Positions 2,516-26,096 of a stretch of 45,915 nt of DNA are shown here, piece after piece. The position numbers were made by a program, and so were the translations under genes. The notes below the pieces were generated by a model. It made no database searches, was not told the DNA's origin, and saw only the letters and a program-made list of their open reading frames with translations. The stretch is taken from positions 1 to 45,915 of IMG/VR virus record IMGVR_UViG_3300012668_000094; one strand, 5' to 3'. The DNA is from a virus. Every line of letters begins with the position of its first letter. The stretch's first letter is position 1.

Positions 2516-3411
2516 CAGGCGGTTCGCTTGAACATGTAGCAGGTGATGTAGGGCTGGAGGTTATTGTGTGCGGCGCCGCCACCCGTGTTCTGGTTTGTTG
2601 CGGTTGCCGGGTTGTTCGTTGCGGTTGTTGCGGTGACCAGGGAGTTGTTACTCGTACCGATCACGCCTGAGCCCGCCGCGGGCGCAACCGTGGTGATCGG
2701 ATCACCCAGTACCTGCTGGTGCTGGTGCGGGTTTTGCGTGTGGTTGTGGGCATCCTGGACGTGCGTGTGAGATGGCATCTCGGCAACGGTCAGGGTGTGG
2801 GTCTTGGCTCCGCCGATCTCCTCAGCGGTATCGAACTCCACCTGCGCGGCATCAACACCAACTGGCACGCGACCAGATCCCCAGGCCACCCAGGTTCCAC
2901 CGAGATAGGTGCCGGGGTTGACGTTGGTTGCACACATCTTGATGTCACCGACCGGGTGGGCGGCAAGGAGCGCCGCCTTCACGAAGGCCGTGGTCGCCAA
3001 GGCGGTAGTGCTATCCGTCGTGACAGGAGTCGTCGCGGTCTTATTGGTCAGCATCTGGGTGTCCGTGGTGCCGACCACGGAGCCGACGACACCATGGACG
3101 TTTGCCGAGGCGTTGACGTGAGCATTGGGCTCACGAACATCCTGGGCCGTAATGCCGTGGACAACTGAGGCGCCGGCCGAGTGCGCGAACGCCGTGGTGC
3201 CGTCGATCCCTCGAGTGACCGTCAGGGTCGTGCCGGCCGCGGCCGTCACGGAGACGGCCTCTTCCGTCGCCGTACCCCGGTCGATGATGAGGGTGTACGG
3301 GTAGGAGATCGGCAGGCCGGTCACCGACGTCATCACAATGGCCGTGGCGAGGGCCGTGCAGCTGTTGGCGAGTGTGGACGCCGCTGCATTGGCGTATTGC
3401 CTTACTGGCAT
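2515..3411 (-). CDS. tail fibre protein with phage-tail-collar-like C-terminal domain
   Basis: 298 aa. C-terminal ...GGAKTHTLTVAEMPSHTH...GGGAAHNNLQPYITCYMFKRTA resembles the collar/MdpB-type fibre tip. Thr/Ala-rich shaft. Confidence 0.7.
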   Translation of the reverse strand: MPVRQYANAAASTLANSCTALATAIVMTSVTGLPISYPYTLIIDRGTATEEAVSVTAAAGTTLTVTRGIDGTTAFAHSAGASVVHGITAQDVREPNAHVNASANVHGVVGSVVGTTDTQMLTNKTATTPVTTDSTTALATTAFVKAALLAAHPVGDIKMCATNVNPGTYLGGTWVAWGSGRVPVGVDAAQVEFDTAEEIGGAKTHTLTVAEMPSHTHVQDAHNHTQNPHQHQQVLGDPITTVAPAAGSGVIGTSNNSLVTATTATNNPATATNQNTGGGAAHNNLQPYITCYMFKRTA

Positions 3412-3414
3412 CGG

Positions 3415-4278
3415 TTACCTCGCAAGGTAGTTGGGTCGGGACGGGAACTGCTCGAGCAGTCGCCGGCGCTCCTCGGCTACGCGCTGGTTGTAGAGCGCGA
3501 AGAGCTGGGTGGCCGTACGGCCGGCATCGCCGGCCTGGATCACATTGGCCCTGCTGACGTTCTCAACGGAGTTGAGCTGCAAGCGGGCTGGCTCGAGGAA
3601 GCGGATCATCCGGGCAGTGACGCCGTAGGTGATCAAGTCCTCGAAGGAGTCGGGGATCCCGGCCGCGGCGAAGTCGGTGGTCAGCGCCCCGAACTTTGCT
3701 GTATAGACGACCCGGACGTCCCACCTCGAGGGCGCACCCTCGTAGAGGTTGAGCATCGGGGTGGTCGTGGTCTTCTCGAGCTCGTAGTTGTTGATGGGGT
3801 ACCAGTAGTCGGCGGGATCCACGGACCACTTCGTCTCGACTCGAAGGATGTTCTCGACGTCGGTCGGCAGGGGGTAGCTGCGGTCAATGACCTGGGGCGC
3901 CAGGGTGGTCTCCTTGACCCGAAATAGGGCCGGGAACAATCCACCGAGGACCTGATCCAGCGCCCGCCCAACCTCGGCTCGAGGGAAGGCCGGATCGAAG
4001 GTGACCATGACTCCGCTGTTGTGGGCAGCCGCGGTCGTACTCCGATACCCCCGCCCAAAGGCTGGGACGATGAGGTCGTTGCCACTCACGGAGTCGACGT
4101 AGATCAGCTCGTCGTCGATCTCTGTGATACCCCGCCTTGCCCCGTCAACGCCCGTACAGGGGATGGCCAGGGCACCAGAGGTCAATGCGCCGTTCAGCGA
4201 CGTGACCTGCTCATGCACCCCTGAGTAGGAGTGCAGAGCAGAGCTGATGCTCGTGATGAGCTCGGACCTCGTGGGCAC
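3415..4278 (-). CDS. virion structural protein (287 aa)
   Basis: Track ORF trimmed to GTG 4278, which has a GGAGA RBS 2 nt after the upstream stop. The upstream 62 codons are Arg/His-rich junk overlapping gene 4281..4631. Confidence 0.5.
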   Translation of the reverse strand: MPTRSELITSISSALHSYSGVHEQVTSLNGALTSGALAIPCTGVDGARRGITEIDDELIYVDSVSGNDLIVPAFGRGYRSTTAAAHNSGVMVTFDPAFPRAEVGRALDQVLGGLFPALFRVKETTLAPQVIDRSYPLPTDVENILRVETKWSVDPADYWYPINNYELEKTTTTPMLNLYEGAPSRWDVRVVYTAKFGALTTDFAAAGIPDSFEDLITYGVTARMIRFLEPARLQLNSVENVSRANVIQAGDAGRTATQLFALYNQRVAEERRRLLEQFPSRPNYLAR

Positions 4279-4280
4279 GA

Positions 4281-4631
4281 TCAGTCTCCGATGAGAGCCG
4301 AAGCGGCGAAGGTGAAGGAGGGGGTGGTGCCGGTGATCGTGTAGACCAGACGGGCGTACTGTCCCTTGACGGCGAACTCCTTGACGACCTTCTTGGCGGC
4401 GGTGATCGCAGTGAAGGTGTCGGGGGTGTCGCCCACATACCACGTCGAGTTGTCGTTGGACCACTCGACACTGACCGTCATGGACGGGCCAGTGCCGGTG
4501 ACCGCTGTGGCGTCAATGAAGACATCGAGGGTGTCGTCGGTCCCGGTCGGGAACGCGGTGCCGTTGGTTGTAGCGATCAGGGCACCCGACGCCTTGGCGA
4601 CGACTACCTGACGAGTCTTGGAGATTCTCAT
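4281..4631 (-). CDS. small beta-rich virion protein
   Basis: 116 aa from ATG 4631 with RBS GGGTGAGGA. Thr/Ala/Val-rich, ...SVEWSNDNSTWY... Confidence 0.45.
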   Translation of the reverse strand: MRISKTRQVVVAKASGALIATTNGTAFPTGTDDTLDVFIDATAVTGTGPSMTVSVEWSNDNSTWYVGDTPDTFTAITAAKKVVKEFAVKGQYARLVYTITGTTPSFTFAASALIGD

Positions 4632-7854: not shown

Positions 7855-8808
7855 TCAGAGAACGTCGATGCTGGAGACCGTCTCCACGCGCCAGAGAGCT
7901 TCCTGGCGGTAGATGGACCAGCCGGCGATGCCGTGCCACGACAGCGGACGGAACCGCATCATCGTGTCCGTGACCGGGCCGATGATGAGGTGCGGCTCGA
8001 CAGCCACGACCTCGGCCAGACACTGCGAGCCGAACAGGTAGGACCTGTAGACCTGCTTCGCGGTCGCACCCGTCGCGGACGTCTTGCAGCGAGGGGACTC
8101 GATGTACGAGACACCGCCGAAGACGCCGACCTGCTCCATCCAGAGGTTGTTCGGAGCGACGTTGTTGTGCGGGTAGCGCCAGCCCAGCTCGCCCGTCTCA
8201 CGACGGAGGTCGTACGCCACGTCGGGGTGGATGAAAGCACCGAAAGTGTTTCCGCCCATCTTCTCGATGACGTTCGCGCCGCGCATCTTGGCGACGACAG
8301 CCTGGGGGATCTGGCTCTTGAAGACGTCGCCCGTGGTGAGCGTCACCTCTGTCTTGGTGGTGCTGGCGACGCCCGCGTTGGAGCGGACGACCTGGGTGCC
8401 GGCGTCCAGCACGTTGCGGACACGGAGGTCCACCGACTCTGCCTGACTCCGGGCGACAAGGTTCGCCACCGCGGGGTCGATGTCTGCGAACGTGAACGTC
8501 CGCAGTCGCAGCGTCGGGATGACCGTCTGACCCATTTCGTTCAGGGTCACGGTCACCGTGCTGGTGGAAGGCACCGCTTCCTCGCCGGGGTTCGTGGCCT
8601 CGGCAAGGTTGGTGGTGTTGGGGGTGAGGTCGTTGTACAGGTTGAACACGACCGTCTCACCGGGGTTGGTGAGAGCTGTTGCTCGGGTGTCCGCCACTCG
8701 ACGGAAAAGGGGCTCGGACCGGAGCTTGAAGCCGACGAGCTTCTCGTAACCGGTCTTGACCAGATTGAGGCCGAGTGAGGTACCCGAAGTGATGTCAGTG
8801 GTAGGCAC
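7855..8808 (-). CDS. major capsid protein (HK97-fold type, inferred)
   Basis: 317 aa directly after the acidic scaffold ORF. GTG start with TAAGGAG RBS. Followed by a strong hairpin. Sequence recalls actinophage capsid proteins (from memory only). Confidence 0.75.
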   Translation of the reverse strand: MPTTDITSGTSLGLNLVKTGYEKLVGFKLRSEPLFRRVADTRATALTNPGETVVFNLYNDLTPNTTNLAEATNPGEEAVPSTSTVTVTLNEMGQTVIPTLRLRTFTFADIDPAVANLVARSQAESVDLRVRNVLDAGTQVVRSNAGVASTTKTEVTLTTGDVFKSQIPQAVVAKMRGANVIEKMGGNTFGAFIHPDVAYDLRRETGELGWRYPHNNVAPNNLWMEQVGVFGGVSYIESPRCKTSATGATAKQVYRSYLFGSQCLAEVVAVEPHLIIGPVTDTMMRFRPLSWHGIAGWSIYRQEALWRVETVSSIDVL

Positions 8809-11927: not shown

Positions 11928-13004
11928 TTACCGTTTGATCTGGACGCCATATGCACCCTCGTCGCCCTCGATGGATCGGATGCGAACGACAGTGCCCGGA
12001 CGGGCGGCTTCAATGACCTGACCGCCACCGATGTAGAGGGCGATGTGGTCGGCGCCGTTGTTGCGGCTGGAGTTATCCCAGGCGACCAGATCTCCCGGGC
12101 GGAGAGCGCTCATGGCGATCCGTGTCCCGGAGTTGGCCTGCTGGTAGCTGACCCTGGGGATCTCAATGCCGGCCGCGGCGAAGGCCTGCTGGAGCAGGCC
12201 CGAGCAGTCGACACCACCCTGGAGGCTGTTGCCGCCCCAGGTGTACGGCACACCCAGGGCCGTCTTGGCCGCTGAGATGACCGCCTTGCGCCAGCCGTCT
12301 ACACCCTTGGTGTAATCCCCAGTCTCCTCCGAGATGGGCTGGATGACCGAGGCGTTGGTCGCCGGCGAGATGAGCGGGCCGGCCCCGAAGTAGGGGTCTG
12401 CCATTGGCACTGGACCACTGCCCAGCTGTTGGATGGGCTCGGGCTGCTGGACGGTCGGGTTCGACATCCCCCAGGCGCCGAGCATCTGCTTGGCGGTAGG
12501 CGTCAGCGGCTCCGGGGTCTCGACCTGGAGGGCCTCCCCAGGGGCCTGTGTGCCGATCTGAGCGCGTTCCAGGCTCTCGAGGTACTGGTCTCCCTCGAGG
12601 GTCTGGGGAGCCTCTCCCGCGGCCCCCTGTACCTCGGGCCACATGGACCGCATGGCGCCGATCCGCTCGGCATACCGCTCCGGGTAGGCCGACCGCTGGA
12701 CGGCCTGAGCCGCCTCCCCCATGCCCATGCCGAAGCGATTGTCCCCGAGGCCAGTCAGGGTGGTGAAGAACTTCTTGGACGAGTAGTACGGATCCGTGAC
12801 CTGCTCGGGAGTGCCCCACCCCTGGGAGGGGCGCTGCTGGAACAGGCCGAGGGAGTCCCGGTCGCCATAGTTCACGTTGACGAGATTGGACTCCACCATG
12901 GCGGTGATGAGCCCGATCTGGATATCCCTGGTGCTCAGGCCCATGGACCGACCGACGCCGACGATCAGGGCGGCGTTGGCCAGCTGCTCCCTGCTCCAGG
13001 CCAC
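11928..13004 (-). CDS. virion-associated peptidoglycan hydrolase (lysozyme/transglycosylase-like + NlpC/P60)
   Basis: N-terminal MVESNLVNVNYGDRDSLGLFQQRPSQGWG. C-terminal YTWGGNSLQGGVDCSGLLQQAF...HIALYIGGG (Cys-His peptidase). Confidence 0.8.
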   Translation of the reverse strand: MAWSREQLANAALIVGVGRSMGLSTRDIQIGLITAMVESNLVNVNYGDRDSLGLFQQRPSQGWGTPEQVTDPYYSSKKFFTTLTGLGDNRFGMGMGEAAQAVQRSAYPERYAERIGAMRSMWPEVQGAAGEAPQTLEGDQYLESLERAQIGTQAPGEALQVETPEPLTPTAKQMLGAWGMSNPTVQQPEPIQQLGSGPVPMADPYFGAGPLISPATNASVIQPISEETGDYTKGVDGWRKAVISAAKTALGVPYTWGGNSLQGGVDCSGLLQQAFAAAGIEIPRVSYQQANSGTRIAMSALRPGDLVAWDNSSRNNGADHIALYIGGGQVIEAARPGTVVRIRSIEGDEGAYGVQIKR

Positions 13005-13005
13005 C

Positions 13006-14067
13006 TCAGACCCCCGGGACGGTCGCCCCGAGCGCCTGGAAGAGCGCCGGCGCGTAGGTGCCTACGGCCTGCCACTCTGCCCAGTCGGGGTTCTGTCGGG
13101 CCCTGCGGAGGAGGATGTCGTCGATGCCAGCCTGGGTAATCCCGGACTGAGTGGTCGAGGAAGAGAAGTTGTCGACGTCACTGGTGGAGTCGGAGTCGAT
13201 GACCCGACCCTTCTTGTTGGTGGTTTGCGACGACGTGTTCTCGGATGTGCTCTTGTTGGTACTCGTCGTCTTGGTGGGGCTTGTCCGCTGTGCGTACTGG
13301 ATGGCCCCAATGAAGTCCTCGAACTCAGCCTTGGTGGGGTCCCGGCCGAGCTCCCGCTGGAGCATGGCCCGGGTGAGGGCCATGGCGTCATTGGGGTCCA
13401 TGACGTCGCGGCTGATGCTGGTGTTCGAGGTCGTGTTGGTCGAGGAGGAGGTGGACGAGAAGGTCCCAGACAGGTCCTTGTTCTTCTCCTCTTCTTCGAT
13501 CCCGACACCGGTGATGTCGATATCGTTCTCGGTCAGGATCCCCGTGAGGTCCGAGAAGGAGCCGTCCCAGTTGGCCCCTCGGGGGAGCCGGTAGGACACG
13601 TTCTGCTCGAGGAGCTGCTCCGGGGTGATCTTCTGGCCGCGGGCGTAGCGGCCGGCCGCGTCGTTGAGCAGGTCCAAGTAGGCGTTCAGGGTCTCATTGA
13701 GGGTGAGATCCCTGGCAGCCTTGCCGACGTCCTCGAGGGACGCGGACCCGGCGAAGCCACCGAGGGTCAGAAGCAGAGCCAGCCGACTCTGCTCCCGGCG
13801 AGTCATCTGCTCGAACTCCTGGAGCAGAGAGTCGATGGTCTCGGTCTTGGTGATCGGACCTGTGACCAGAACGGACCCCTGGTAGGAGCCACCGGTGCTC
13901 GTGCCCGCGAAGACGGGGGCGAGCAGTGGATCCTCTTGGGTAGTGGCAGTGGCCGGAAGAGCCGATGGCATCGAGCTCTGGATCTGCGCGGCCCAGTCAT
14001 CACCCGGGGAACTGGGTCGCTCGCCGGTTGGCCTGGGCGTTGGTGGGGTGGTGTAGCCCTCGGGCAT
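13006..14067 (-). CDS. internal-virion-type protein (353 aa) with Ser/Thr-rich segments
   Basis: TAATG overlap with the giant gene. No motif recognised. Confidence 0.5.
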   Translation of the reverse strand: MPEGYTTPPTPRPTGERPSSPGDDWAAQIQSSMPSALPATATTQEDPLLAPVFAGTSTGGSYQGSVLVTGPITKTETIDSLLQEFEQMTRREQSRLALLLTLGGFAGSASLEDVGKAARDLTLNETLNAYLDLLNDAAGRYARGQKITPEQLLEQNVSYRLPRGANWDGSFSDLTGILTENDIDITGVGIEEEEKNKDLSGTFSSTSSSTNTTSNTSISRDVMDPNDAMALTRAMLQRELGRDPTKAEFEDFIGAIQYAQRTSPTKTTSTNKSTSENTSSQTTNKKGRVIDSDSTSDVDNFSSSTTQSGITQAGIDDILLRRARQNPDWAEWQAVGTYAPALFQALGATVPGV

Positions 14068-17000
14068 TAGCCGCTCCCTCGCATCAGTGTGTCACCCGTC
14101 AAGTAGCGGGCGTAGAGCTCCGCGAAGGCGGGATTGGATTGAACGATCTGACCGGTCTGGTCGTAGAACCATGAGGCCAGCGGGACGTTAGTGTCGGCCT
14201 GGAGACTCCTGGATCCACCGGCCATGTAGGCGGCGTCCAGCTGCTCGGCAGCCATCGTCCGGACGATGAGATACTGACGGAGGCCGGCGATGTCGGGCCG
14301 GTCGTCGAATTCCTTGTCGAAGGCGAACGTCTCGAGCTGCTGAACCTTGGTGTCGATGTCGTTGGCGAAGACATCAAAGTCAGCGGCCCAGGCCGGGTAC
14401 TGGTCCCGAAGGTCCGAGGTGGCGGCTGCCTTGAGTCGTTGCAGGTCCTTGGCCTCGACCTGCTGGATGCTGGTCAAGCCTCGCTCCATGAGCGCGGCGT
14501 CGACCGCCGCGGCCACCTTGCGGAACTCCTGCCATCCGAGCAGGCGCTCGCCTTCATCCATGCGAGCCTGCGGGTCCTGGATCTCACGCAGCTTGCGCGA
14601 GTCCAGCGGGCCCAGCTGGATATCGAACTGGGCGCGGTAGGCGTCCTGGGAGTAGTCGTCCGTGTAGGCGTCGGGGCTGATGACCAGCCCTCCCCAGTGG
14701 GGGAACTTCTGGATCAGGTCGGCGTTCTCCGACCACTCCTCCATGCCCTGGTTGGTGGGCGGGACGTGGGCCAGGGAGTTGCTCGAGCTGACGGCGTAGT
14801 ACGCCGCATCCTTGCCATAGTCGGTCAGGAACTGGTCGAAGTAGTCCTGGCCGTAGATCTCGCGGTAGCGGTGTGCCTGATCGAGCCAGAACTGGTGCTT
14901 GGGTGCGAACTCCGTCTGGACCGGGCTGGCCCAGCTGGAGAAGGCCCGCAGGCCCCAGAGGAAGTTGGCTGCCTTGTTGATCTCGTGCTGGGTTGGCATC
15001 GGCTTGCCCTCGCGGCGAGCCTCGAGGAGCATCTCCCGGCCCACCGACCATGCGAGGTTCGCACGGCCGAGGTCGTCAGCACCACCGGTGGCGTCCAGGA
15101 CGCGCCGGCCCCAGCCAGGGAACAGCTGCTCGAGGACACCCTCGGCGCCCGTCGAAGGGCGACCGATGGGGAAGAGCCAGCGATACCAGAGGTCATCGCT
15201 GCTGCCGGTGCCATCTGTGGGCGACACGATCTTGAGGAACTTGTCGATGGGCATGGTGAGCAGTGGGCCCGTCGACGGGAACAGTGGCATCTCGCCCTGG
15301 AGGACGGTGTTGGCCGACCCGATGGGGATGCGTACCGATCCGACGCTGTACAGAGACTTGCCCAGTGGCGTATCCCTCACCCACTCGGGGATGTTGAAGA
15401 CCACCTTGTCGGTCGGCTGGTAGAGGCCGAGGTTGAATGTGCCGCCCTTGCGGGTGCCGTCCTCAACCTCGTTGTTCTCCTCGTCGACCACGACGAAGTT
15501 GCGGTAGGTCGCACGCTGGCCCACAAACCACCGGGCCACCGTCTCGGGGCGGTCGCTGACGATCCGGGCCCACTTCACCATCGCCTCCTGCTGGGCGTTC
15601 CAGAAGGGGGCGATGAAGCGCAGCATGTCCGTCAGGTTGGTACCGTCCGACAGGTCGTACAGGGTCTTGCGGACCTCGTTCAGCGCGTGCCGGCGTGCCT
15701 CGGAGTAGATCCGACCTACGGCCTGCTCGTCGAGGAACTTGCGGTCGGTCTGTGCCACGAGGGCGCGCACCTTGGCGTCGAAGACAGCCTTGGCGAACGG
15801 CTGGCGGGAGAGGGCGTCGATGGGGATGGTGCCCAGGCCGGACCACATCTTGTCCGCGAGCCGCGTCCAGGGGGCGCTCTTGGTCATCTCGAGGTCGGGC
15901 CCGAAGACGTCCGGCATGTCGTCGTTGTGAATATCACGGCGCAGCTGGGCCGGCGTGAGCCGGTTCTTGCCCAGGAGTCGCTGGAGGCGCTTGTTGGGCA
16001 GGTAGTAGTCCAGCTTCGCCCGGTGCTCGTTCACCCAGAGCTCGGTGCTCCGGTGCTCGGGCATGATCTCAGCCCGGACCCGGTTGCCCTGCGGGGTGTT
16101 GTCGAGCCAGTCGACGATCTGGTCATCCCGCTGGCCGGCCAGCATCCTCTTCCAGATGGGGCTGTTGCCGACCTGATCGTTGAGCATGTCGGCCCAGATG
16201 TCGAAGTACCGCACGGCCGTCTGGTTCTCGCGGGTGCCGCGGACGACCGTCTTCTCATTGAACTTCGGGGGATGGTAAGTCTTGTGTCCGGCTGCCTGCT
16301 GGCGCAGGTACTGGAGAGCTCCACCGTGGCCGTCGCTGATGTTGTCGATGGTCTTGCTCGAGGAGACCAGGGCGCGGTTGATGTCGCCCTCCTGCCCCTC
16401 GAAGAAGTTCGGGATGTGGAACTGCTTGCCGTCAGCATCCTCGATGGTGGTGTGGCCGGCGCCGTACTTCTTCTTCATGCGCTCGTACAGCCCGCGGGCG
16501 GGGTCGTCGAGGGTGGAGTCCATGTCCTCGAGGTTCATCTGCCGGTCGCCGTCGAGGTAGGCCATCTCCTGGGCGCGGAGGTCGCCGTTGGCGGCAGCCG
16601 CCCAGTCGAAGTCAGCGTTCAGGCCATCGGCCTCGTTGACCATCTGGTTGAACCGCTGGGGGTGTGCCACCTCGTACCAGTCCTGGCCGAAGGCGTTGGG
16701 GGTGCCCGGGTCGACGTGGCTGTAGTCCATGGCCCTGACGGCGAAGTCGTCGAGATTCTGGTCGAGCGCCCGAGCCTTGCCCACGGTGAAGCCGTGGTAC
16801 TCCAGGCCCATCGCAGACATGAGCGTCTGCTCCTGGGTGCGGAGCTCGATCACCCTGGGGTCAGTGAGTCTGGCCTTGCCGCTCAGCTGGGCCTTGCGCG
16901 CCTCCAGCTCGGCGTGGATGGTGTGCAGCTGGCGCAGCATGGGGTTGCGCTTGCCGAACCGCACGATGCGGGACTCGGGGACGCTGTTGGTGGTGAGGGG

Positions 17001-20000
17001 CATCTCGACGGAGCGGGGGTCGGCAAACCACCGCTCGATGGGAGTGAAATCCCCATCGGGCACATAGAGCGGCTTGACCTCAAGGTCCTCGGGGCGCAGC
17101 CAGATGTAGACCTGATGCCGGGTCGGGGTGTTGTTGCCCCCGCGGTGCGTCAGGGCGCCGGCGTTCTTGGTCTCCTCGAGGTAGCGGGAGACGATCTTGT
17201 TGGCCTCGCCATACTGGTCGATCTGCTCCCAGACGTTCGCCCAGGTGACCTTCTTGGAGCTCGGGTGGATTCGGGTCTGGAAGGCACTCTGGGCTCGGTT
17301 GAGCTTGCGACCATGATTGCGATAGGCCATGTCGCGCATGTTGAGCGCGGCGTTGTATGACCGTCGCAGGTCGTCGGCGGTGAGGTCAGAGATCTCGCTA
17401 CGACTCGGGTTCTCACGGACCCAGTTGATGAGGTCGTCGATGTCGGCCTTGGTCATCTCCTGGTCGACGTCGAAGACGTCGTACGTCTTGCCGGTCTTGG
17501 AGCTGCGGAGGTGGTAGAGCTTGCCGGTGCCGTAGGTGTAAGAGTCAACCACGTCGGCGGCGACACTGGTGTGGAAGCCAGGGCCGAGCATATTCCCGTT
17601 GTCCATGGGAACCTCTTCACGAGGAAGGAGCTCATCCGGCAGGTCGCGGCTAGTCCCGTGGAAGACGGGCTTGGTTAGCGGCTCGCCATTCAGGGCACCC
17701 GGGGGCGCCTGGAGGTCGGGGTCTACCTTGAGTCCCTGCTGGCCCTGGAAGTAGCGGTACAGGCCCTCCTGCATCGGAGAGAGGGTGTCGCGGGACATTG
17801 CGTAGTACGGCTTGTTGCCCTCGAGGTCGAACATGCGAAGGGCCTTGGGGTTCGCGTCGAGGGGTGTAGACTCAGCGACCCGGCGAAGAGCGTTGCTCGC
17901 CAGGACCTTCGGGTTGCCACCCTTCTTGCCCTTGGTCGTCTGGCCGAACCATAGGCCGACGCCAAGGTTGCCATCGGGGTCGATGAAGGTGCGGATCCCC
18001 TGCCGGCTCAAGAGCTCGGCGTTCTGCTCCACCCAGTAGTGGAAGTTGCGCTCCTGCTGGATCCCACCCTCGCCGCGGCGAAGGTTGATACCGGGGTTGA
18101 TGCTGGGAAGCGGGACGAAGTAGCCGCGAGTCAGCCGCTGACCCGTGAGGGCGTCATAGACGGCCGGCATGTCCATGGCCTTCGTTGCGTCGGCATCACT
18201 GGTAACCCGACTGCGGAAGTCGTTGTAGTCGTTGACCACGCGATAGAGCGGGTCGCCCATGTCGTTGACGGCCTGCTGGCGGGCCTGCTGACGCAAGGCC
18301 GCACCGTCTCGGATGAAGCCGAGGTTCTTGATGTGCTCCAGGCGGGCGGGCTGCTCGCCGTCCTTGACGCCGAGCAACTCCTTCTCCCAGGGCGCGGGCG
18401 CCAGGGCAAGGTCAGCCATCTCCTTCTCGAACTCGTTGCTCGAGAGCCGCCATGCGTCATCGGAGCGATTGCGGAGAGAGTAGGCCTGACCGATCTTGGA
18501 GGCGCGGTCGAACCGGCTCTTGTTCACGGCCGGGAACTCATTGGCCGGGAACTTCGGGGCGGTGGTGATCTCGACGTCGTGCTTGATCGGGTCGGGGCTG
18601 ACGCGCTGGTAGCGGGCCAGGGGCCCGTCGTTCAGCCACTTGTGGTGTGAGCGTAGGTCGAACTTGTTCTTGACCCACCCGGGCACGCCGGCAACCGTCT
18701 TGGCCGAGAAGAGGCCGAGGGAGTAGGCGCCGGTACCGAGGGCGCGGGCGCCCTCTCCGGTGACCCAGTACATCGGGCCGAAGATGGCGGCAGCACGAAG
18801 CCCCTCGTCCATGAGGACGCGCTGGGGCCAGCCCGGTCGCCACAGCTGCATCGGCTTCCAGAGGGAGTAGAACTTGGTGCCGATTATGTTCGTCAGGGCT
18901 GCCGTATGCGCCGCTCCGTAGGCGGCGCGGTTCTTGTCGAGGCTGGCCAGGATCTCGGGGTGACGCTTGAGCTCGTAGTAGAGCGCCCGGATGTCGGCCG
19001 GCTGGTAGTAGTTCACCGTCTGGGTGGCGTCCTCGGGGGCCACGCGCTTCTGGAGCGCGGACTCGTGGACCGTCACCGTGGTGCGCTTGGTGCCGTCCAT
19101 TAGCTCGAGGGTGACCATGCCGTTGTCGTCGGGCTCGCTCACGAGGCGAGCAGTGTTGAACTCGTCACCGACGCGCTGGCCGAGGGCCGGGGCGCTCGAG
19201 TAGACACGGCCCTTGCCCGAGAGCACGCCATCGAAGGTGCGACCCCGCTCCGCATTCACGGTGTCCCAGATCAGCTTCACGGTGTCGGTGGAGACGCCGA
19301 GCTTCTGGGCCATGCCCGGAATGAGGTGGCTCTCCTCCATGTCGAAGAGGACCTTGTACTTCTCTCGGGGGGTGGGGGCATCGACGAAGCGCTGCACCGT
19401 CTCGGCGCGGAGCTCGGGGTCCACCTTGTAGGCGAGGGTCATGTCCAGGCCCTCGAAGTACCGGTCGATGTTGCGGGGCCCGGAGTCGATGTCGTGGAAC
19501 GAGATCGTGCCGGCCTTGTTCATCCAGGTGTTCCTGGTCCACGAGATGCTCTCGTGGGAGTAGCCGAACTGGTTCCCCATGAACATCTTCCGCACCGGCC
19601 CGCGGGAGTCGAAGCGGCCCTCGACGTCGTTCCACTTGGGTGCCTGGATCCGCTGGACCCGCGGCTGGTAGGGGTCCCCCATGTCGAGGACGTTGCCGGC
19701 CCTGTCCTGGGTCAGGCCCTTGGTGCCCATGAGATCCAGCCAGTCGGCGTACTCCAGGTTGCCCCGGAGGTCCTTCTCGGCCTGGGCGAGCTGCTGCTCG
19801 CGGAGCTTGATGTCGGTGTCGATCTCCCACCGGTGGAAGGCGCTGCCGCCAGCCGGCTTCTTGGCGAGGTCGGCCAGCTCTGCCTCCAGGACGGAGGCGC
19901 GAGTCTTGGTGGCCTCGAGGGCATTGAGGAACGTCGAGGCATTGGGGTCGTACTTGAGCAGGTTCTCCGGGGTCTCCCGCTTGAGCCGGTCGACCTGGGC

Positions 20001-21290
20001 GAAGGCCTTGGAGTCGTTGTTCAGTACGCCCCAGGTGAGGTTCATCAAGTCGGGGTTGTCGGCCTGGGCGGCGATGTGGAGGGCCTTGGCCGCGGCCACC
20101 CCATCGGTGGCCCGGTTGTGGAACATCGGCAGGCGGGCGAAGGTGGCGAAGTCTGTGTTGCGGGCGTAGTCCTCTACGCCGGCGCGACCCTCGAGCATCC
20201 GGTTGGCACGCCAGCTGGCGTACTTCTGTGCCGGCTTCGTGCGGACGCTGATGATCTCGCGGCCGGTCAAGCCCTCGCGGATAGCGGCCGACATCGACGA
20301 CGCCTCGTTGATGGGCGTCTCGTTGCGAAGGATGCGGCGGAAGTTGCCGGCGCCGCGGGCGACGATCACACCAGGGTCGGCGTACCACAGTGCAGCGAGC
20401 TCGGCGCCGACCGAGGACATCTGGTAGAGGGAGTTGCCCTTACGCATCTCCTCCAGCTGTGCATCGGTGGCGACCGGATTGAGGAGCGAGTCGACCATGG
20501 CGTTGCCGAGGGTCTTCTCATTGTTCTCGCGCCACGACCTGCCCCAGCTGTCGGGCGAGAAGTAGTAGTTCAGGGCGTCCGTGGGATTGCCCGAGAGGAA
20601 CCGGGAGTTGGTCTCCTTGGTCATGTAGACCGCGGTGGTCGCGCCACGGTAGGCCTTGTTCCAGGCGGTGGCAGCCTGCTCGACACCGGGGAGCTCGGAG
20701 ACGTTGGTGCGGACGGCGCTTGACTTGGCGCGGCGGGCGATCTCGATGCGAGTGGGCTCCGAGAATGACATGTACTCGGTCTCGGTGAGCGTGCCGCCGT
20801 GCTGCACATAGTAGTCGTAGCCGGGGTCCTCGGGGGCGTCCCCCATGAGGTAGGTCAGCGGGTCGTCGTTGAGTAGACCCGTGACGCCCTGGCCGATGTC
20901 GTTGCGGGCCTGCCGCAGCCCGGTCTGGACCTCATTGCCGAGCTTCTGATACCAGGGCTGGTCACCGTCGCCCTTGTTGGAGAAGCTCGAGGACTCCATC
21001 GAGAAGCCGTAGCGCTCGAAGTTTTGGGCGATATCCAGCTCGCGCTGGTGGGTGGCCGGGTCCACGCGAGCGGCGGCGAGCGCGATCTCGTCGCGCCGGC
21101 TGATCTCGGCCTGGAGTCGAACATATTCAGCGAAGGAGTCGCCGTCGATGGGCAGGGTGGACAGGTCGAGGGCAGCACCGAATGGAGGGATTGCTCCCGC
21201 GGGCGTGATCGCAGCCGCCGCGGCACCTACCCGCGTGACGCTCCACGGACTCCCACTGCTTGATGCAGTGAGCGACCAAGGACTACTCAA
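14067..21290 (-). CDS. giant virion-module protein (2,407 aa) with ART-PolyVal-like segment; putative ejected polyvalent protein
   Basis: Single 7,224-nt ORF. TTG start overlaps the upstream stop (TTGA). aa ~1205-1410 read KPVFHGTS...GPGFHTSVAADVVDSYTYGTGKLYHL...HQVYIWL. Confidence 0.75.
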   Translation of the reverse strand: MSSPWSLTASSSGSPWSVTRVGAAAAAITPAGAIPPFGAALDLSTLPIDGDSFAEYVRLQAEISRRDEIALAAARVDPATHQRELDIAQNFERYGFSMESSSFSNKGDGDQPWYQKLGNEVQTGLRQARNDIGQGVTGLLNDDPLTYLMGDAPEDPGYDYYVQHGGTLTETEYMSFSEPTRIEIARRAKSSAVRTNVSELPGVEQAATAWNKAYRGATTAVYMTKETNSRFLSGNPTDALNYYFSPDSWGRSWRENNEKTLGNAMVDSLLNPVATDAQLEEMRKGNSLYQMSSVGAELAALWYADPGVIVARGAGNFRRILRNETPINEASSMSAAIREGLTGREIISVRTKPAQKYASWRANRMLEGRAGVEDYARNTDFATFARLPMFHNRATDGVAAAKALHIAAQADNPDLMNLTWGVLNNDSKAFAQVDRLKRETPENLLKYDPNASTFLNALEATKTRASVLEAELADLAKKPAGGSAFHRWEIDTDIKLREQQLAQAEKDLRGNLEYADWLDLMGTKGLTQDRAGNVLDMGDPYQPRVQRIQAPKWNDVEGRFDSRGPVRKMFMGNQFGYSHESISWTRNTWMNKAGTISFHDIDSGPRNIDRYFEGLDMTLAYKVDPELRAETVQRFVDAPTPREKYKVLFDMEESHLIPGMAQKLGVSTDTVKLIWDTVNAERGRTFDGVLSGKGRVYSSAPALGQRVGDEFNTARLVSEPDDNGMVTLELMDGTKRTTVTVHESALQKRVAPEDATQTVNYYQPADIRALYYELKRHPEILASLDKNRAAYGAAHTAALTNIIGTKFYSLWKPMQLWRPGWPQRVLMDEGLRAAAIFGPMYWVTGEGARALGTGAYSLGLFSAKTVAGVPGWVKNKFDLRSHHKWLNDGPLARYQRVSPDPIKHDVEITTAPKFPANEFPAVNKSRFDRASKIGQAYSLRNRSDDAWRLSSNEFEKEMADLALAPAPWEKELLGVKDGEQPARLEHIKNLGFIRDGAALRQQARQQAVNDMGDPLYRVVNDYNDFRSRVTSDADATKAMDMPAVYDALTGQRLTRGYFVPLPSINPGINLRRGEGGIQQERNFHYWVEQNAELLSRQGIRTFIDPDGNLGVGLWFGQTTKGKKGGNPKVLASNALRRVAESTPLDANPKALRMFDLEGNKPYYAMSRDTLSPMQEGLYRYFQGQQGLKVDPDLQAPPGALNGEPLTKPVFHGTSRDLPDELLPREEVPMDNGNMLGPGFHTSVAADVVDSYTYGTGKLYHLRSSKTGKTYDVFDVDQEMTKADIDDLINWVRENPSRSEISDLTADDLRRSYNAALNMRDMAYRNHGRKLNRAQSAFQTRIHPSSKKVTWANVWEQIDQYGEANKIVSRYLEETKNAGALTHRGGNNTPTRHQVYIWLRPEDLEVKPLYVPDGDFTPIERWFADPRSVEMPLTTNSVPESRIVRFGKRNPMLRQLHTIHAELEARKAQLSGKARLTDPRVIELRTQEQTLMSAMGLEYHGFTVGKARALDQNLDDFAVRAMDYSHVDPGTPNAFGQDWYEVAHPQRFNQMVNEADGLNADFDWAAAANGDLRAQEMAYLDGDRQMNLEDMDSTLDDPARGLYERMKKKYGAGHTTIEDADGKQFHIPNFFEGQEGDINRALVSSSKTIDNISDGHGGALQYLRQQAAGHKTYHPPKFNEKTVVRGTRENQTAVRYFDIWADMLNDQVGNSPIWKRMLAGQRDDQIVDWLDNTPQGNRVRAEIMPEHRSTELWVNEHRAKLDYYLPNKRLQRLLGKNRLTPAQLRRDIHNDDMPDVFGPDLEMTKSAPWTRLADKMWSGLGTIPIDALSRQPFAKAVFDAKVRALVAQTDRKFLDEQAVGRIYSEARRHALNEVRKTLYDLSDGTNLTDMLRFIAPFWNAQQEAMVKWARIVSDRPETVARWFVGQRATYRNFVVVDEENNEVEDGTRKGGTFNLGLYQPTDKVVFNIPEWVRDTPLGKSLYSVGSVRIPIGSANTVLQGEMPLFPSTGPLLTMPIDKFLKIVSPTDGTGSSDDLWYRWLFPIGRPSTGAEGVLEQLFPGWGRRVLDATGGADDLGRANLAWSVGREMLLEARREGKPMPTQHEINKAANFLWGLRAFSSWASPVQTEFAPKHQFWLDQAHRYREIYGQDYFDQFLTDYGKDAAYYAVSSSNSLAHVPPTNQGMEEWSENADLIQKFPHWGGLVISPDAYTDDYSQDAYRAQFDIQLGPLDSRKLREIQDPQARMDEGERLLGWQEFRKVAAAVDAALMERGLTSIQQVEAKDLQRLKAAATSDLRDQYPAWAADFDVFANDIDTKVQQLETFAFDKEFDDRPDIAGLRQYLIVRTMAAEQLDAAYMAGGSRSLQADTNVPLASWFYDQTGQIVQSNPAFAELYARYLTGDTLMRGSG

Positions 21291-21766
21291 CCTAGCTCTG
21301 CTCTCAACTGCCGCACGAGGCGGCGTGTGTTCTGGTCCGCGTCATCTCTCGAGGCGAGGACGACCAGGACGGGAAGGAACTTGCGAAGACGAGCCCGCTG
21401 CTCGTCATTCAGGGGGGACGGCATGTTGGGCGCCGAGGGTCCAGCGCCCGGTCCACCGGACATGCCAGCCATCACGTCCTCCATGGGGCGCTGGGTGTCA
21501 GCGTCCATGGGAACCAGCTGGGAGAGGTCGGGGCCGGCCGCAGGCGGGGCACCGGCACTGGCAGCCATGCCGCCAGAGCCGAGGTCGCCGCTCATGGGGG
21601 CACCGCCCTGGATCTGCTGCATGGCCTGTCGTTCGCCATAGTCGCCACCGGGGGCAATCATCTGCGGCTGCCTTCCATCGGTGCGCTTGGAGAGACGCCC
21701 GGGTCCAGAGACCGGGGCGGGGTGTGCGGGGCGGCGGTAGCCGCCGTGGCCGTTCCCATCAGCCAT
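21287..21766 (-). CDS. Gly/Pro/Met-rich low-complexity protein (159 aa)
   Basis: ATG 21766 overlaps the upstream stop by 8 nt. Only the C-terminal ~45 aa look structured. Confidence 0.5.
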   Translation of the reverse strand: MADGNGHGGYRRPAHPAPVSGPGRLSKRTDGRQPQMIAPGGDYGERQAMQQIQGGAPMSGDLGSGGMAASAGAPPAAGPDLSQLVPMDADTQRPMEDVMAGMSGGPGAGPSAPNMPSPLNDEQRARLRKFLPVLVVLASRDDADQNTRRLVRQLRAELG

Positions 21767-21998
21767 CGGCTGACTCCGAGGTGATCCGCTCAATGTCGAG
21801 CGAGGCCTCCTGGCGGAACTGGGCCTGCTGTGTCTTGAAGTTTGCGTGGCCTGCCGCCAGATTGAAGGCGATCACTGCCGTCGAATGGAAAGCAGCAAGG
21901 ATCCCCTCGACGAGATTGAGCACCAAGGGCGCAAGATCATCAACCCTGAACTGGTGGGCACCATTGGGCTCGAAGTAGCATTCGTCGTCGTCATCCAT
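21759..21998 (-). CDS. hypothetical protein (79 aa, acidic N-terminus)
   Basis: RBS CAAGGAGG. Preceded by GC hairpin 22030-22060. Confidence 0.5.
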   Translation of the reverse strand: MDDDDECYFEPNGAHQFRVDDLAPLVLNLVEGILAAFHSTAVIAFNLAAGHANFKTQQAQFRQEASLDIERITSESADG

Positions 21999-22270: not shown

Positions 22271-22396
22271 TTATTGGGCCGGCCCGGGCTTCCGATGCCG
22301 GGGCGCGTAGGTGGTGGTGAAGGTGTGGGTGGTCGACTGGATGAAGCCGCGGCCACAAGAAGGGCAGATCGGGCCGTTCCAGGTGTAGGGGTACAT
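22271..22396 (-). CDS. 41-aa CPSC-containing small protein
   Basis: ATG shares one base with the portal stop (TGATG). Hand translation: MYPYTWNGPICPSCGRGFIQ... Not in the track. Confidence 0.4.
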   Translation of the reverse strand: MYPYTWNGPICPSCGRGFIQSTTHTFTTTYAPRHRKPGPAQ

Positions 22397-24195
22397 CAGG
22401 CGGGGATCCTTCTCGAGACGTTCGCCTGGAGGTTGGCGTTACCGCCCGGAGTGAGGCCGGCCAGCACCATCGAGATATCAGGTGCGGCGCCGGCGCCCAT
22501 GAAGGCGTTGTCTCCAGGCTGTTCGGTGGGAGCGGGGCCTCCCCCGCCCAGCTGTTGCATCAGCTGGGCCATGGGGTCGTTGGCCGCGGCTGCCGGCTGC
22601 TCCTCGGGCATGAAGGCCTCGAGGACCGCCTCGTGGAACGGCTTGCCGCTCTCCCGGTCCCTGATGATCTGCGCGGCCCGCTGGAGGGTCTGGAGGGGGT
22701 CGACCCCCTGCTGACTCATCACCGGGGCGTTGGCGAGCAGGGCGAACATGCCCTGCTTCATCGCGTCGGTCATCTGCTCGATATCGACTCGACGCTGGAG
22801 GTCTTCCACGTCGACGTCGAACGGCAACATCCGCTGCATGGTGTCGCGGTCGATGGCCTGATCTGCTCGCAGCTGGAGCAGGAACACGATGGCCCGGTTG
22901 GGGTCCATGCCGGCCGTCATGCCGTACGTCACGGAGACGGAGTAGTCGCCCTTGATGTCCTTCGCCGGCGTGTAGGTCTCGGTGAAGGGCGCGCCGCTGG
23001 CGACGCCGCGGACGGTCTTGCGGACCTCGGGCCAGTAGAGCTCGTCCATCTCGAACGCGATCTCGACGGCTCTACGGAGACAGTCCCCCACCACGTCCTG
23101 CGCGGTGGCGATCTGAGTGGAGTACCACTCGGTCAGGGCCTCCACGCCCTTGCCCGTGATGACCGAGGCCTTCACGTCCCCGCGGCGTGCCGCGGGTGAC
23201 CGGGTACCGTCCGCAATCTCCTTGTCCAGGAGCTGCGACTCGATCAGAGAAGACTGGGGCAGCTCGATGGGTACGCGCCGAACCTTGTCGGGACTGTTCG
23301 TGCGAATAATCGCATCGGCGCCAAAACTGATCTGAGTCACATCGTCAGGCACGGCGAGCGGAGCTCGCACTGCCTTGTCCGCGGCCTCCAACCCGTACAC
23401 GGCCATGCGTGCGCGGGCGAGCCAGACCCAGATCACATCATCGAACTGCCCTCGCTGCTGCTCATCCCACCGCGGTCGCTCAGCGACCACAATTGGGGGA
23501 CGCTTGAAGCGATGTTCAAGCCTACGGAGCACCAGCCCCTCCCGCTCGGGGAGGAAGAGGATGATTGAGTTGTTCACGTACATCTGGGCGACGTCGAGCT
23601 TGGTGTCGCCCGCCTCGCCCTTGCCCCAGGCTGTGTCGCTGCGCCCGATGTACTCGGCCACCTCGGGGAATTTCGCACTCAGCGACTCGATGGTGTCCTG
23701 CCACACCTTGCAGTACAGGGTGACGTTGCCATAGAAGTCGGTCTGCCAGAAGGCGGTACGGGGGTCGTCGATGCGGAACCGCGGGCACTGCGCCTCGAAG
23801 TCCGGCTCGATGACGATGGGCATGGCCGCGAAGGACCAGAACCAGTCGCAGCCCGTGTAGAGCTGGAGCTTGAGCCGGCTGTGCTCCACGTAGTAGAGCG
23901 CCACCTTGGTCCGCTTCGAGGAGAAGCGCTTGGCCCGGTCGCTGTTCATCGAGGAGCTGGTGCAGTCGATGGAGGGAAGGCGGGCCAGGGTCTCGGCCAT
24001 GTCTCGAGCCGTCACGTCGACGATGTTGGCGACGACCGGCCGGGGCCAATTCTTCGGGAACATCCCGGGCATGATGGATTCCACGTCACCACGACGCGCA
24101 GCCGCGACATCGCGGTTGCGCTGCTGGCGCTCAGTGGATCCTGAGACCAGCGAGTTGAAGCGACCCATCAGATCGCGCGAGACGTGTTCCATCAC
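22396..24195 (-). CDS. portal protein
   Basis: 599 aa directly downstream of terL with a GTGA overlap. Size and position are typical. No motif-level proof. Confidence 0.7.
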   Translation of the reverse strand: MMEHVSRDLMGRFNSLVSGSTERQQRNRDVAAARRGDVESIMPGMFPKNWPRPVVANIVDVTARDMAETLARLPSIDCTSSSMNSDRAKRFSSKRTKVALYYVEHSRLKLQLYTGCDWFWSFAAMPIVIEPDFEAQCPRFRIDDPRTAFWQTDFYGNVTLYCKVWQDTIESLSAKFPEVAEYIGRSDTAWGKGEAGDTKLDVAQMYVNNSIILFLPEREGLVLRRLEHRFKRPPIVVAERPRWDEQQRGQFDDVIWVWLARARMAVYGLEAADKAVRAPLAVPDDVTQISFGADAIIRTNSPDKVRRVPIELPQSSLIESQLLDKEIADGTRSPAARRGDVKASVITGKGVEALTEWYSTQIATAQDVVGDCLRRAVEIAFEMDELYWPEVRKTVRGVASGAPFTETYTPAKDIKGDYSVSVTYGMTAGMDPNRAIVFLLQLRADQAIDRDTMQRMLPFDVDVEDLQRRVDIEQMTDAMKQGMFALLANAPVMSQQGVDPLQTLQRAAQIIRDRESGKPFHEAVLEAFMPEEQPAAAANDPMAQLMQQLGGGGPAPTEQPGDNAFMGAGAAPDISMVLAGLTPGGNANLQANVSRRIPA

Positions 24196-26096
24196 ATGGC
24201 CTGTCGTTGATGCTGGAGGTACTCGTCGATGTTGATGACCACCCGGTCGGCAAGGTCGTTATCGGAGGCGAATGGGTTCTCGAGGAAGTCCTGCTTCCGG
24301 TTACCCAGGTGCTTGACGACCGCGCGAGCGGCGGTCTCTGCGAACCAGAGGGCCATCACGGTGTCGATCTTCTGGGTCTTCGGGTGCTCGGGGTACCACG
24401 TCACCAGCTGTGCCTTGAGGGTGCGGAAGGCCTCGTTGGGATTCATGCCAGGGAGGTCGAGCAGGGCGTGGCCGTCCTGATGTCCGCGGAGCAGATTCTC
24501 GAGCGAGGAGACACCCCACTCGGGGTCATTCTTGTTGTTGTTGGTGCTGTGCTCGTCGAGACGGACACCTCTCGAGGCCAAGAATTGGTTGATCTCCCGG
24601 TCCTGGGTGAGGAATGCCTGGAAGGCGTTCTTCTCAATTCGCCAGATGTCGATGTCGTACTTCTCGGTCCAGTCCATGATGAGCTCACGAAGCCCACTGG
24701 CACGGACCTGCTTGTTGAAGACGTCAACGAGGTAACGCTTCCCGGTGTCACGGTCGACAGCGAGTACCACGCAGGCGGTGAAGCCTGCTGACGTGGCCGG
24801 GTCTAGGCCGGCGACGACGGTCATGTTGCGGAGGGTGGGAACCTGTCCGCGCCAACGGCTGCCGTCCTGGCAGCTGTTGAGAGCTTCGATGGTAAAGAGG
24901 GTCTCCTCGGAGACCGGCTGCTGCATGTAGACCAGGGCCCAGGTGGTCGGCTTGAGCTTGCGGCGCAGCTTCGCCAGCCGCGGCCCGTCCCACTTCGGCC
25001 ACAGGCCCTCGGCGTTCGGGGTGCCCGGGCGGGTCGGGTGGGGTCGATCCGCGTACGGCCAGAGCGTGACCCACTTCTCCGGGTCGTCGTCGAAGTCGAA
25101 GACGGCCGGCTGGGACAGGTACGTCCAGTCGGACTCTTCCCCGTCGTAGTGGTCGGGGTTGAGGAGCTCGGAGTAGAGGTCCACCGGTGCCACGCGAGTC
25201 CCCACGACGAGCAGGGGCGCGTCACGGGTCATCACGTCCTGCATGATGTAGTCCAGGTGCGCCTCGTACTGGTGCGCGTTGTTCAGGTCCTGCACGTCGT
25301 CGAGGATGATGAGATCGGCGCGGGCGCCGTAGATCTGCTGACCGATTCCCAGGACCTCGATGTTCGGGTCCTTCTGGTCGGAGTCGGTGTTGCCGAAGTA
25401 GATCATGTTGGCAGTCCAGACCTCGGCTGCCTTCTCGAAGCCCTCGGCCGGCCCGTAGTCGATCTGGAGCTTGGCGAACGCCTTGTTGGTCAGCCGGCGC
25501 TTGATGCCGGCGAGGAACTTCTTCGCCATCCGCTCGGTCTTGGAAATGATGACCACGCGGAACTCGGGGTTGGTGACGATCTTGTACGTCACGTAGTCCA
25601 TCGTGATCGTGGTGCTCTTCGCGTGGCCGGGTGGAGTGTTGATGATCACCGTGTCCGGGTCGCCCAGCTTGTAGACCTGGGCCGGGTGCAGGTTGCGAGG
25701 CTCCCGACCCTCGATGAGGTCGATCCACTGCATCTGGTGATTGAAGCGCCTGGAGTTGAGGTACTTCTCCGAGAAGTCCTCAAAAGAAATGAATTCGCCG
25801 CGGCGGTCGTATTTAGCACCAGCAATGCGGGCGAGAATGAGATCTGCGGCCTCTTTGAATTCCGCATCGGTTTCCCGGTAATACTTCCAAATGGCCGGCT
25901 GCTTTCCAGCCAGTCGACAGGAATCCTCGACAGTATGGCCGGCCTCCCGCATGGCAAGGATCTTGGCCTTGGTCCGTGCCACCTCTGAACGCTTGGCTGT
26001 CGCCTTGCGTCGAACCTGAGAAGAAGCAAGTCCTGAATTCTGGGCCTCACCGGCGAGCCGGCCATCGCGGCTCGGCGGGTCAAGATGACGGGCCAC
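24192..26096 (-). CDS. terL: terminase large subunit with N-terminal HTH-like extension
   Basis: PPGHAKST (Walker A-like), LIILDDVQD (Walker B), nuclease-type VVAGLDPATS. The first ~95 aa are basic/helical (AKILAMREAGHTVEDSCRLAG). Confidence 0.9.
   Translation of the reverse strand: MARHLDPPSRDGRLAGEAQNSGLASSQVRRKATAKRSEVARTKAKILAMREAGHTVEDSCRLAGKQPAIWKYYRETDAEFKEAADLILARIAGAKYDRRGEFISFEDFSEKYLNSRRFNHQMQWIDLIEGREPRNLHPAQVYKLGDPDTVIINTPPGHAKSTTITMDYVTYKIVTNPEFRVVIISKTERMAKKFLAGIKRRLTNKAFAKLQIDYGPAEGFEKAAEVWTANMIYFGNTDSDQKDPNIEVLGIGQQIYGARADLIILDDVQDLNNAHQYEAHLDYIMQDVMTRDAPLLVVGTRVAPVDLYSELLNPDHYDGEESDWTYLSQPAVFDFDDDPEKWVTLWPYADRPHPTRPGTPNAEGLWPKWDGPRLAKLRRKLKPTTWALVYMQQPVSEETLFTIEALNSCQDGSRWRGQVPTLRNMTVVAGLDPATSAGFTACVVLAVDRDTGKRYLVDVFNKQVRASGLRELIMDWTEKYDIDIWRIEKNAFQAFLTQDREINQFLASRGVRLDEHSTNNNKNDPEWGVSSLENLLRGHQDGHALLDLPGMNPNEAFRTLKAQLVTWYPEHPKTQKIDTVMALWFAETAARAVVKHLGNRKQDFLENPFASDNDLADRVVINIDEYLQHQRQAM

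Follow-up and report, generated by a model that had tools for sequence, protein, structure and literature searches.

A predicted ADP-ribosyltransferase-like module occupies a variable slot in a giant, probably virion-associated protein of a podovirus-like phage

ADP-ribosyltransferases (ARTs) are divided into the classes H-H-h, H-Y-[EDQ] and R-S-E (PMC7955679). In the H-Y-[EDQ] clade, the fold has a split beta-sheet whose strands 1, 2 and 5 contribute His, Tyr and Glu, Asp or Gln (Aravind et al. 2015, as summarised in PMC7955679). The prototype of the ART-PolyVal or N4-ART domain (PF18760) lies in the virion RNA polymerase (vRNAP) of Roseovarius Plymouth podovirus 1 (RPP1), and the triad of this domain consists of a histidine on strand 1, a tyrosine on strand 2 and an aspartate on strand 5 (Iyer et al. 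2017, PMC5512222). Polyvalent proteins combine 2 to 15 unrelated effector domains, typically MPTase, ArdC, SNF2, methylase, MuF or LPD domains (Iyer et al. 2017, PMC5512222). The ADP-ribosyltransferase Alt of phage T4 is packaged in the head and injected with the DNA (PMC5512222, PMC9503650). Microbacterium cluster EK podoviruses and phage Burro encode a product of more than 4,400 amino acids (aa) described as 'likely processed, and virion associated' (Jacobs-Sera et al. 2020, PMC7302621). Such giant genes of actinobacterial podoviruses, including gp10 of cluster BF and the 13-kb gene of cluster EK, stand without an assigned role. Here we analyse a giant gene (14067..21290, minus strand) of the IMG/VR virus record IMGVR_UViG_3300012668_000094, examined from position 1 to position 45,915 (45,915 nucleotides (nt), hereafter the window). 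Judging from its sequence and gene order, it most likely encodes an internal virion (ejection) protein of a temperate podovirus-like actinophage. In the middle of this protein, a predicted ART-PolyVal-like module occupies a slot that is filled in some relatives and much shorter in others.

The giant gene starts with TTG and encodes 2,407 aa in a single uninterrupted open reading frame (ORF) of 7,224 nt, which makes up 15.7% of the window; no transmembrane segment is predicted in the protein. Its start codon (21290-21288) and the TGA stop of the 168-aa ORF upstream share letters in the string TTGA, and its stop overlaps the ATG of the downstream 353-aa ORF in TAATG. The GC content at the three codon positions is 0.635, 0.439 and 0.892. 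Two full-length homologues from other assemblies, P0002 and P0003, show 72-73% identity across 99% of the length, with the start codon called identically, and about 30 further, more distant relatives were found. Given the third-position GC of 0.89, the overlaps with both neighbours and the presence of homologues near and far, the ORF is a genuine gene and no high-GC artefact. The first-pass annotation, made from the letters alone, had described one unbroken ORF covering about 16% of the genome and a TTG start coupled to the upstream gene, and both features were recovered here. It had also placed the gene between small portal-proximal genes and a lysin gene; this is correct on the upstream side, whereas on the downstream side the 353-aa ORF (13006-14067) intervenes. 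A search for internal repeats in the protein returned none.

Opposite the giant gene runs an antisense ORF of 973 aa (14439-17360, plus strand), for which the likeliest explanation is a stop-poor frame without coding function, given the third-position GC of 0.89 in the frame of the giant gene. The 2,407-aa protein contains not a single cysteine. Actinophage composition may be the simple cause, or the lack of cysteine may be of use to a protein that has to unfold on its way through the portal and tail channel.

Two conserved blocks flank a variable one in the giant protein. The N-terminal body (residues 1 to about 1160; 17811..21290, minus strand) is conserved across the family and matches nothing in Pfam or Protein Data Bank (PDB) searches, while the C-terminal body (residues about 1570-2407; 14067..16580, minus strand) recurs in the giant proteins of cluster BF podoviruses of Streptomyces. 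Both bodies were found in every relative at 41% identity or more. The variable cassette between them (residues about 1165-1570; 16581..17798, minus strand) is present in P0002, P0003, L010, L012 and the module-bearing representatives, whereas four relatives (P0004/L007, L011, L013 and L021) keep both bodies and lack the module. In its place, P0004/L007, L011 and L013 have a few tens of residues and L021 about 160 aa. Since the same site is filled in some relatives and much shorter in four others, we regard residues about 1165-1570 as a presence/absence cassette; no relative was seen to carry an alternative domain in this slot. The two bodies also differ in their rate of change. In L011 and L012, relatives with TerL, portal and capsid proteins at 70-84% identity, the C-terminal body is about 48-50% identical and the N-terminal body only 31%; the N-terminal half therefore evolves unusually fast.

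Database searches with the whole protein were informative for the C-terminal body. A search against 50,697 phage records with tblastn matched solely the C-terminal third (residues about 1570-2400), the targets being giant hypothetical proteins in 29 Streptomyces podovirus records at 23-25% identity. The sole match in PHROGs is phrog_10618, of unknown function (residues 1622-2007, E 1.9e-56), which is also matched by 18 of 21 family members. A Pfam scan of the whole protein gave no match at E<=1, and PDB sequence searches with the single protein, with a profile of the module and with a full-length profile found nothing meaningful. The family is rare, the giant gene being carried by a handful of viral and metagenomic contigs. 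A metagenome scan added one new partial relative, and two scans of 185,579 species-representative genomes found no prophage copy or relative, and hence no host assignment. A word-index search with the 267-aa module returned zero matches and missed even the source protein, and with a 29-sequence profile it returned 8 proteins, none of them in the set from the exhaustive search described below; its negatives are therefore not to be read as absence.

The ART-PolyVal-like module itself spans residues 1186-1444 (16959..17735, minus strand) and was examined with an AlphaFold2 model, Foldseek and hhalign. With the module profile, an exhaustive HMMER search through 1.84 billion representative proteins found 24 at E<=0.001. 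Most of the carriers are giants of about 2,100-2,550 aa with the module near residues 1,150-1,400; a few are shorter, probably incomplete, and carry it at a similar distance from the start. Modelled from a 24-sequence alignment (A4), residues 1186-1444 reached a predicted local distance difference test (pLDDT) score of 83.2 and a predicted template modelling score of 0.79. An earlier model from a 3-sequence alignment (pLDDT 35.7) was discarded and never searched. The retained model shows, in order, the strands VFH and GFHT, a helix, the strands KLYHLRS and TYDVF, a helical insertion, and the strands ALTHRG, HQVYIW and LEVKP. The insertion (residues about 1281-1375; 17166..17450, minus strand) comprises about 95 aa, varies in length and sequence among copies and forms helices at module positions 96-190 of the model.

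Ten predicted viral structures in BFVD were matched by this model in Foldseek at E<=1e-3. The top matches are annotated 'ART-PolyVal-like domain-containing protein' or 'PolyVal ADP-Ribosyltransferase', with E-values of 8.8e-6 to 8e-4, probabilities of 0.99-1.0 and TM-scores of 0.31-0.50. Among the non-significant PDB matches, ParT, Xre-RES toxins, diphtheria toxin, PARP1, tankyrase and NatT appear repeatedly, the small toxins with target-normalised TM-scores of 0.46-0.51. Aligned with hhalign to the ART-PolyVal domain of RPP1 (E 1.9e-4, probability 48%), the family alignment pairs the HGT and GxG[FL][YF]T..A..Y motifs of both. Two distant carriers give sub-threshold Pfam matches located precisely on their modules: P0028 to PF18760 (E 5.6e-4), and P0029, in the N-terminal half, to DUF3990. 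DUF3990 belongs to the ART clan of Pfam (PMC7955679). Taken together, these results identify the module as a distant ART-PolyVal relative that current models miss, and we consider its homology to ART-PolyVal-type domains very probable.

Residue conservation was counted over the 24 module copies, which are about 21-64% identical overall. The strand-1 histidine in VFHGT, H1211 (17658..17660, minus strand), aligns with the HGT of RPP1 and is a histidine in 22 of the 24. The strand-2 position is a tyrosine in every copy except that of the window (23/24), which has H1240 (codon CAC, 17571..17573, minus strand). The tyrosine codon TAC is one transition away, and the change could be a real substitution or an assembly error. 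A second tyrosine follows 11 residues later, at 1251 (21/24), a spacing that we take to equal that of Tyr896 and Tyr907 in PARP1. The putative strand-5 catalytic position is Q1393 (17112..17114, minus strand) in H-Q-VYIW; this column, just before the VYVW strand, holds Q in 13 copies, D in 4, R in 2, H in 2 and other residues in 3. It was assigned by analogy with the PARP motif 'YNE-YIVY' (PMC7955679) and with 'E-IMVV' and 'E-AMVIA' of N4-like ARTs. Around it, H1382 and H1392 (21/24 each) and E1401 (23/24) are conserved, and Gly1384-Gly1385 and Pro1400 are also nearly invariant. At the aligned positions the family triad thus reads H, Y and Q or D, which, on this alignment, is within the recognised H-Y-[EDQ] class. 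Since the triad of the window copy reads H, H, Q (H1211, H1240, Q1393), the activity of that copy may be altered or reduced.

Compared with the described ART-PolyVal domains, the module shares the predicted fold, ART-PolyVal-like proteins being its best structural matches, and the order of motifs: hHGT, GxG-aromatic-T...A..Y, a G-x-x-G-h strand, and a hydrophobic strand followed by P/D-x-x-h. In both cases the domain is part of a phage protein of very large size whose gene lies among the late genes. The module differs in that the window protein has no Pfam match and the family stays below threshold; in its triad, which is H-Y-D there, H, Y, Q/D in the module family and H, H, Q in the window; in its helical insertion and a conserved C-terminal tail ending in VPExRIxR; and in its confinement to about 24 representative proteins among the 1.84 billion. 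Of the three marks of ART-PolyVal membership, then, the fold is present in the model and two, a score above the Pfam threshold and the H-Y-D triad, are absent. Placement in the H-Y-[EDQ] clade agrees with the family residues H, Y and Q/D and with the recurrence, without significance, of ART folds in the PDB list, whereas strand 2 of the window copy carries a histidine.

The proposal in the first-pass annotation of an ART-PolyVal core in an ejected polyvalent protein can be judged on these results. The peptides on which it relied are in place (KPVFHGTS at 1207, GPGFHTS at 1236, KLYHL at 1257, ALTHRGG at 1379 and HQVYIWL at 1392), and the structural comparison that it had called for, run on the module, ranks ART-PolyVal-like proteins first. 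The ART-like core is therefore borne out as to its predicted fold (pLDDT 83.2, Foldseek E 8.8e-6) and its conserved H1211, and not as to the canonical triad: the catalytic glutamate it had suggested is replaced by Q1393 at strand 5, with H1240 in place of the strand-2 tyrosine, and PF18760, which it had named as a check, found no match even at E<=10. Its statement that the remainder holds nothing nameable stands for the other ~2,100 aa. The term polyvalent is not borne out so far. A single effector-like domain can be named, and peptidase, helicase, methylase and LPD domains were not detected in the protein; neither there nor in the 18 scanned members of the giant family does Pfam name anything else. 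LPD38 occurs solely in a distant carrier of the module, P0028, while the giant protein has one nameable domain, the ART-like module, though its other ~2,100 aa may conceal more.

Beyond the giant family, the module was found in three full-length carriers of different architecture. In P0027 (2,330 aa) it precedes a tape-measure protein. In P0028 (1,425 aa) a region of an internal-virion-protein family (phrog_6651) is followed by the module and then by an LPD38 domain. The third carrier, P0029 (943 aa), has no PHROG match. In P0027 and P0028, the partners of the module thus appear, by annotation, to be proteins or families that leave the virion.

The surroundings of the giant gene are those of a virion block, and all late genes lie on the minus strand. 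TerL (24192-26096) comes first and is followed by the portal gene (22396-24195), a 121-aa ORF and the 168-aa gene (21287..21793; phrog_8200), whose stop overlaps the start of the giant gene. Downstream come the 353-aa gene (13006..14067) and a 358-aa lysin gene (11928..13004) that encodes a lysozyme-like N-terminal part and an NlpC/P60 peptidase (PF00877, E 5.4e-24), with PHROG matches to endolysins, tail lysins and tape-measure lysins. A 318-aa ORF and several small ORFs separate the lysin gene from the major capsid gene (7855-8808). The order TerL, portal, small genes, 168-aa gene, giant gene, 353-aa gene, lysin, 318-aa ORF and capsid is kept in at least 8 related contigs and in Streptomyces phage Manuel, where identity to the window is 42% for TerL, 44% for the portal and 43% for the capsid protein; the 168-aa, 353-aa and lysin genes are thus syntenic in relatives. 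No strong minus-strand terminator-like site was found inside the late block.

Electron microscopy shows the phages of Manuelvirus and cluster BF to be podoviruses (PMC11536984, PMC13097060). In cluster BF (Beephvirinae), the giant proteins (1,646 aa in Manuel gp10; phrog_10618) are homologous to the C-terminal ~830 aa of the window protein at 23-25% identity, and the window protein belongs with phrog_10618 by its own match (E 1.9e-56). Their genes likewise follow the portal gene and precede peptidase and glycosylase genes. Homology to the N-terminal body and the ART-like module were not detected in these giants. Cluster BF phages, the closest relatives in culture, are described as virulent and have 15-21 tRNA genes, in contrast to the window, which has an integrase, a repressor-like gene and no tRNA genes. 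The giant gene product of the cluster EK podoviruses is comparable in that it, too, comes from one exceptionally long virion-block gene of an actinobacterial podovirus, with no role assigned; unlike the cluster BF giants, it shows no similarity to the window protein, tblastn against the phage collection having matched Streptomyces phages only. A further parallel is offered by gp14, gp15 and gp16 of T7, the large internal proteins of a podovirus that form the ejectosome, leave the particle before the DNA and are accompanied by a wall-degrading activity. The lytic domain belongs to gp16 itself in T7 and to a separate neighbouring gene in the window, and the PDB sequence searches detected no sequence or profile similarity between the T7 core proteins and the giant protein.

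From the place of the gene between portal and capsid and from the fusions of the module to tape-measure and internal-virion-type proteins, we infer that the giant protein is packaged and ejected; its association with the virion we hold to be probable. The protein would be produced with the late (head) genes, be stored in the head close to the portal and exit the virion together with the DNA, and the 353-aa protein and the NlpC/P60 lysin would probably help it to traverse the thick Gram-positive wall. The ART-like module would then be optional cargo in the slot at about 1165-1570, binding NAD+ and transferring ADP-ribose to a host target early in infection, in the manner of T4 Alt. The idea of cargo is based on the presence/absence polymorphism, the occurrence of the module in unrelated virion-type architectures and the conservation of a putative NAD+ pocket; the much faster evolution of the N-terminal body relative to the structural genes can be listed with these. 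The proposed logic is that of Alt, a late-made, virion-borne ART that hits host targets at the onset of infection. Alt is of modest size. It is also a separate protein of the R-S-E clade, whereas the module is H-Y-[EDQ]-like, lies within a protein of 2,407 aa and is known as a prediction. That virions can deliver an ART is a general idea already established; for the present module, enzymatic activity is predicted from sequence features. We lean slightly towards this account as a whole, that is, an ejected internal virion protein carrying an ART-like cargo module. That the window copy is an active transferase is a more tentative proposition, and its chances seem to us somewhat below even.

Several observations weigh against this account. 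PF18760 found no match at E<=10 in residues 1171-1437 of the window protein or in P0002, P0005 and P0006. Its gathering score is 31.2 bits and the vRNAP of RPP1, used as a positive control, scored 36.5 bits; among the 21 family members it matches P0028 alone, below threshold (21.1 bits, E 5.6e-4) and in the C-terminal half of the module. Foldseek found no PDB match at E<=1e-3, the best having an E-value of 0.27, TM-scores are modest (0.39-0.51), and the hhalign probabilities reach only 36-48%. When the insertion was left out and the module core compared with three N4-like ART domains, these probabilities were 12-36%, with an unreliable C-terminal register. The H-Y-D triad of ART-PolyVal is absent, the window having His for Tyr and Gln for Asp, and the strand-5 residue was assigned by motif analogy and not from coordinates, hhalign giving a different, low-confidence register. 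Neither a processing peptidase (zincin MPTase) nor a MuF packaging domain, both common in known polyvalent proteins, was found with Pfam, and nothing named matches the other ~2,100 aa.

The main alternative is a purely structural protein, a core or envelope-spanning conduit in which the ART-like module is decayed and non-catalytic, serves for packing or NAD+ binding, or is being lost. The window copy is altered at two of the three positions of the ART-PolyVal triad, H1240 for Tyr and Q1393 for Asp (PMC5512222); the module is dispensable in four relatives; Pfam is blind to it; and the conserved syntenic portion of the protein is the C-terminal body and not the module. However, the putative NAD+-contacting residues and the additional histidine, glycine and glutamate residues are kept in 21-23 of the 24 copies despite identities of about 21-64%, which argues for selection on a pocket. 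Glutamine on strand 5 and histidine on strand 2 are, moreover, known from the ART classes H-Y-[EDQ] and H-H-h (PMC7955679), and the spread of the module into unrelated ejected or internal-virion-type proteins is what would be expected of useful cargo. We consider the purely structural explanation unlikely, though it is the most serious of the alternatives.

A bolder extension would see in the giant protein a delivery chassis with a plug-in effector slot at about 1165-1570, the cargo belonging to a previously unclassified ART lineage. The marks of such a lineage would be the H, Y, Q/D triad (H, H, Q here), the extra histidines H1382 and H1392 and the helical insertion. The module could then modify a nucleic acid or a small molecule, or could deplete or sense NAD+ against NAD+-based host defences at entry. 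We regard this version as distinctly unlikely.

A tape-measure or other tail-length-determining role is suggested by the great length of the protein and its place in the virion block, by an adjacent lysin matching lysin domains that also occur within tape-measure proteins, and by the tape-measure fusion in the distant carrier P0027. Yet among the ORFs that were compared with PHROGs, none was recognised as a gene for a tail tube, sheath, chaperone or tape measure. The first-pass annotation had already pointed to a missing tail-tube, chaperone and tape-measure context when it doubted that the protein was a length ruler, and this doubt gains further ground here. The gene is located between the portal and capsid genes, outside a tail block; the protein lacks both internal repeats and a match to a tape-measure PHROG; and electron microscopy shows that relatives with a homologous C-terminal third and the same gene order are podoviruses, whose tails are very short (PMC11536984, PMC13097060). 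We therefore judge such a role highly improbable.

Still more improbable is an RNA polymerase carried in the virion, as with N4 gp50 or the giant enzyme of crAss-like phages: the size of the protein in a podovirus-like genome, the location of the prototype ART-PolyVal domain in an N4-like vRNAP and the string NADFDW at residue 1558, which resembles the NADFDGD motif, speak for it, but the Pfam models vRNAP_dom and N4_RNAP found no match in a scan that detects both in the RPP1 protein, the sigma-factor-like gene and the repressor suggest use of the host polymerase, and the idea was dropped because NADFDW lacks the third aspartate, lies inside the variable cassette and is not conserved (NAEFDW in L010, none in P0011, and the whole region missing from module-less relatives).

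With an ejected internal virion protein as the favoured account, one of the giant genes of actinobacterial podoviruses gains a testable anatomy, namely two conserved bodies and an optional middle slot with an ART-like domain. Should the module be active, virion-delivered ADP-ribosylation would extend to phages of Gram-positive Actinobacteria, and the module would define an ART-PolyVal-related lineage missed by current Pfam models. Should it be inactive, the protein would be an ordinary internal virion protein with a decayed domain. The natural presence/absence variants and the lone Tyr-to-His change provide ready-made experimental controls for either outcome.

The other genes of the window complete the picture of the phage. 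An integrase gene (44405-45433, plus strand; phrog_1, E 2e-34) and a repressor-like gene (42870-43379, minus strand) are present, and therefore the phage is temperate; its genome is nearly complete. A sigma-factor-like gene (34062-34691, minus strand; phrog_354, E 1.6e-13) lies among early and replication genes, which suggests that the phage redirects the host RNA polymerase instead of supplying its own. A 349-aa protein (3415-4464, minus strand) resembles the SU10 adaptor family (PF24175) weakly and below threshold (E 1.5e-4, 22.7 bits with a cut-off of 27), which fits a podovirus-type tail. Tail-fibre-like genes (614-3411, minus strand) come last in the late-gene order. At the 5' end of one of them (2515-3411) lies the sole megablast match of the first 25 kb to the 50,697 phage records, a stretch of 58 nt (2514-2571) with 89.7% identity to the start of a minor tail protein gene of Microbacterium phage Rie18. 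This match may mark a mosaic joint and may also be a weak hint to the host.

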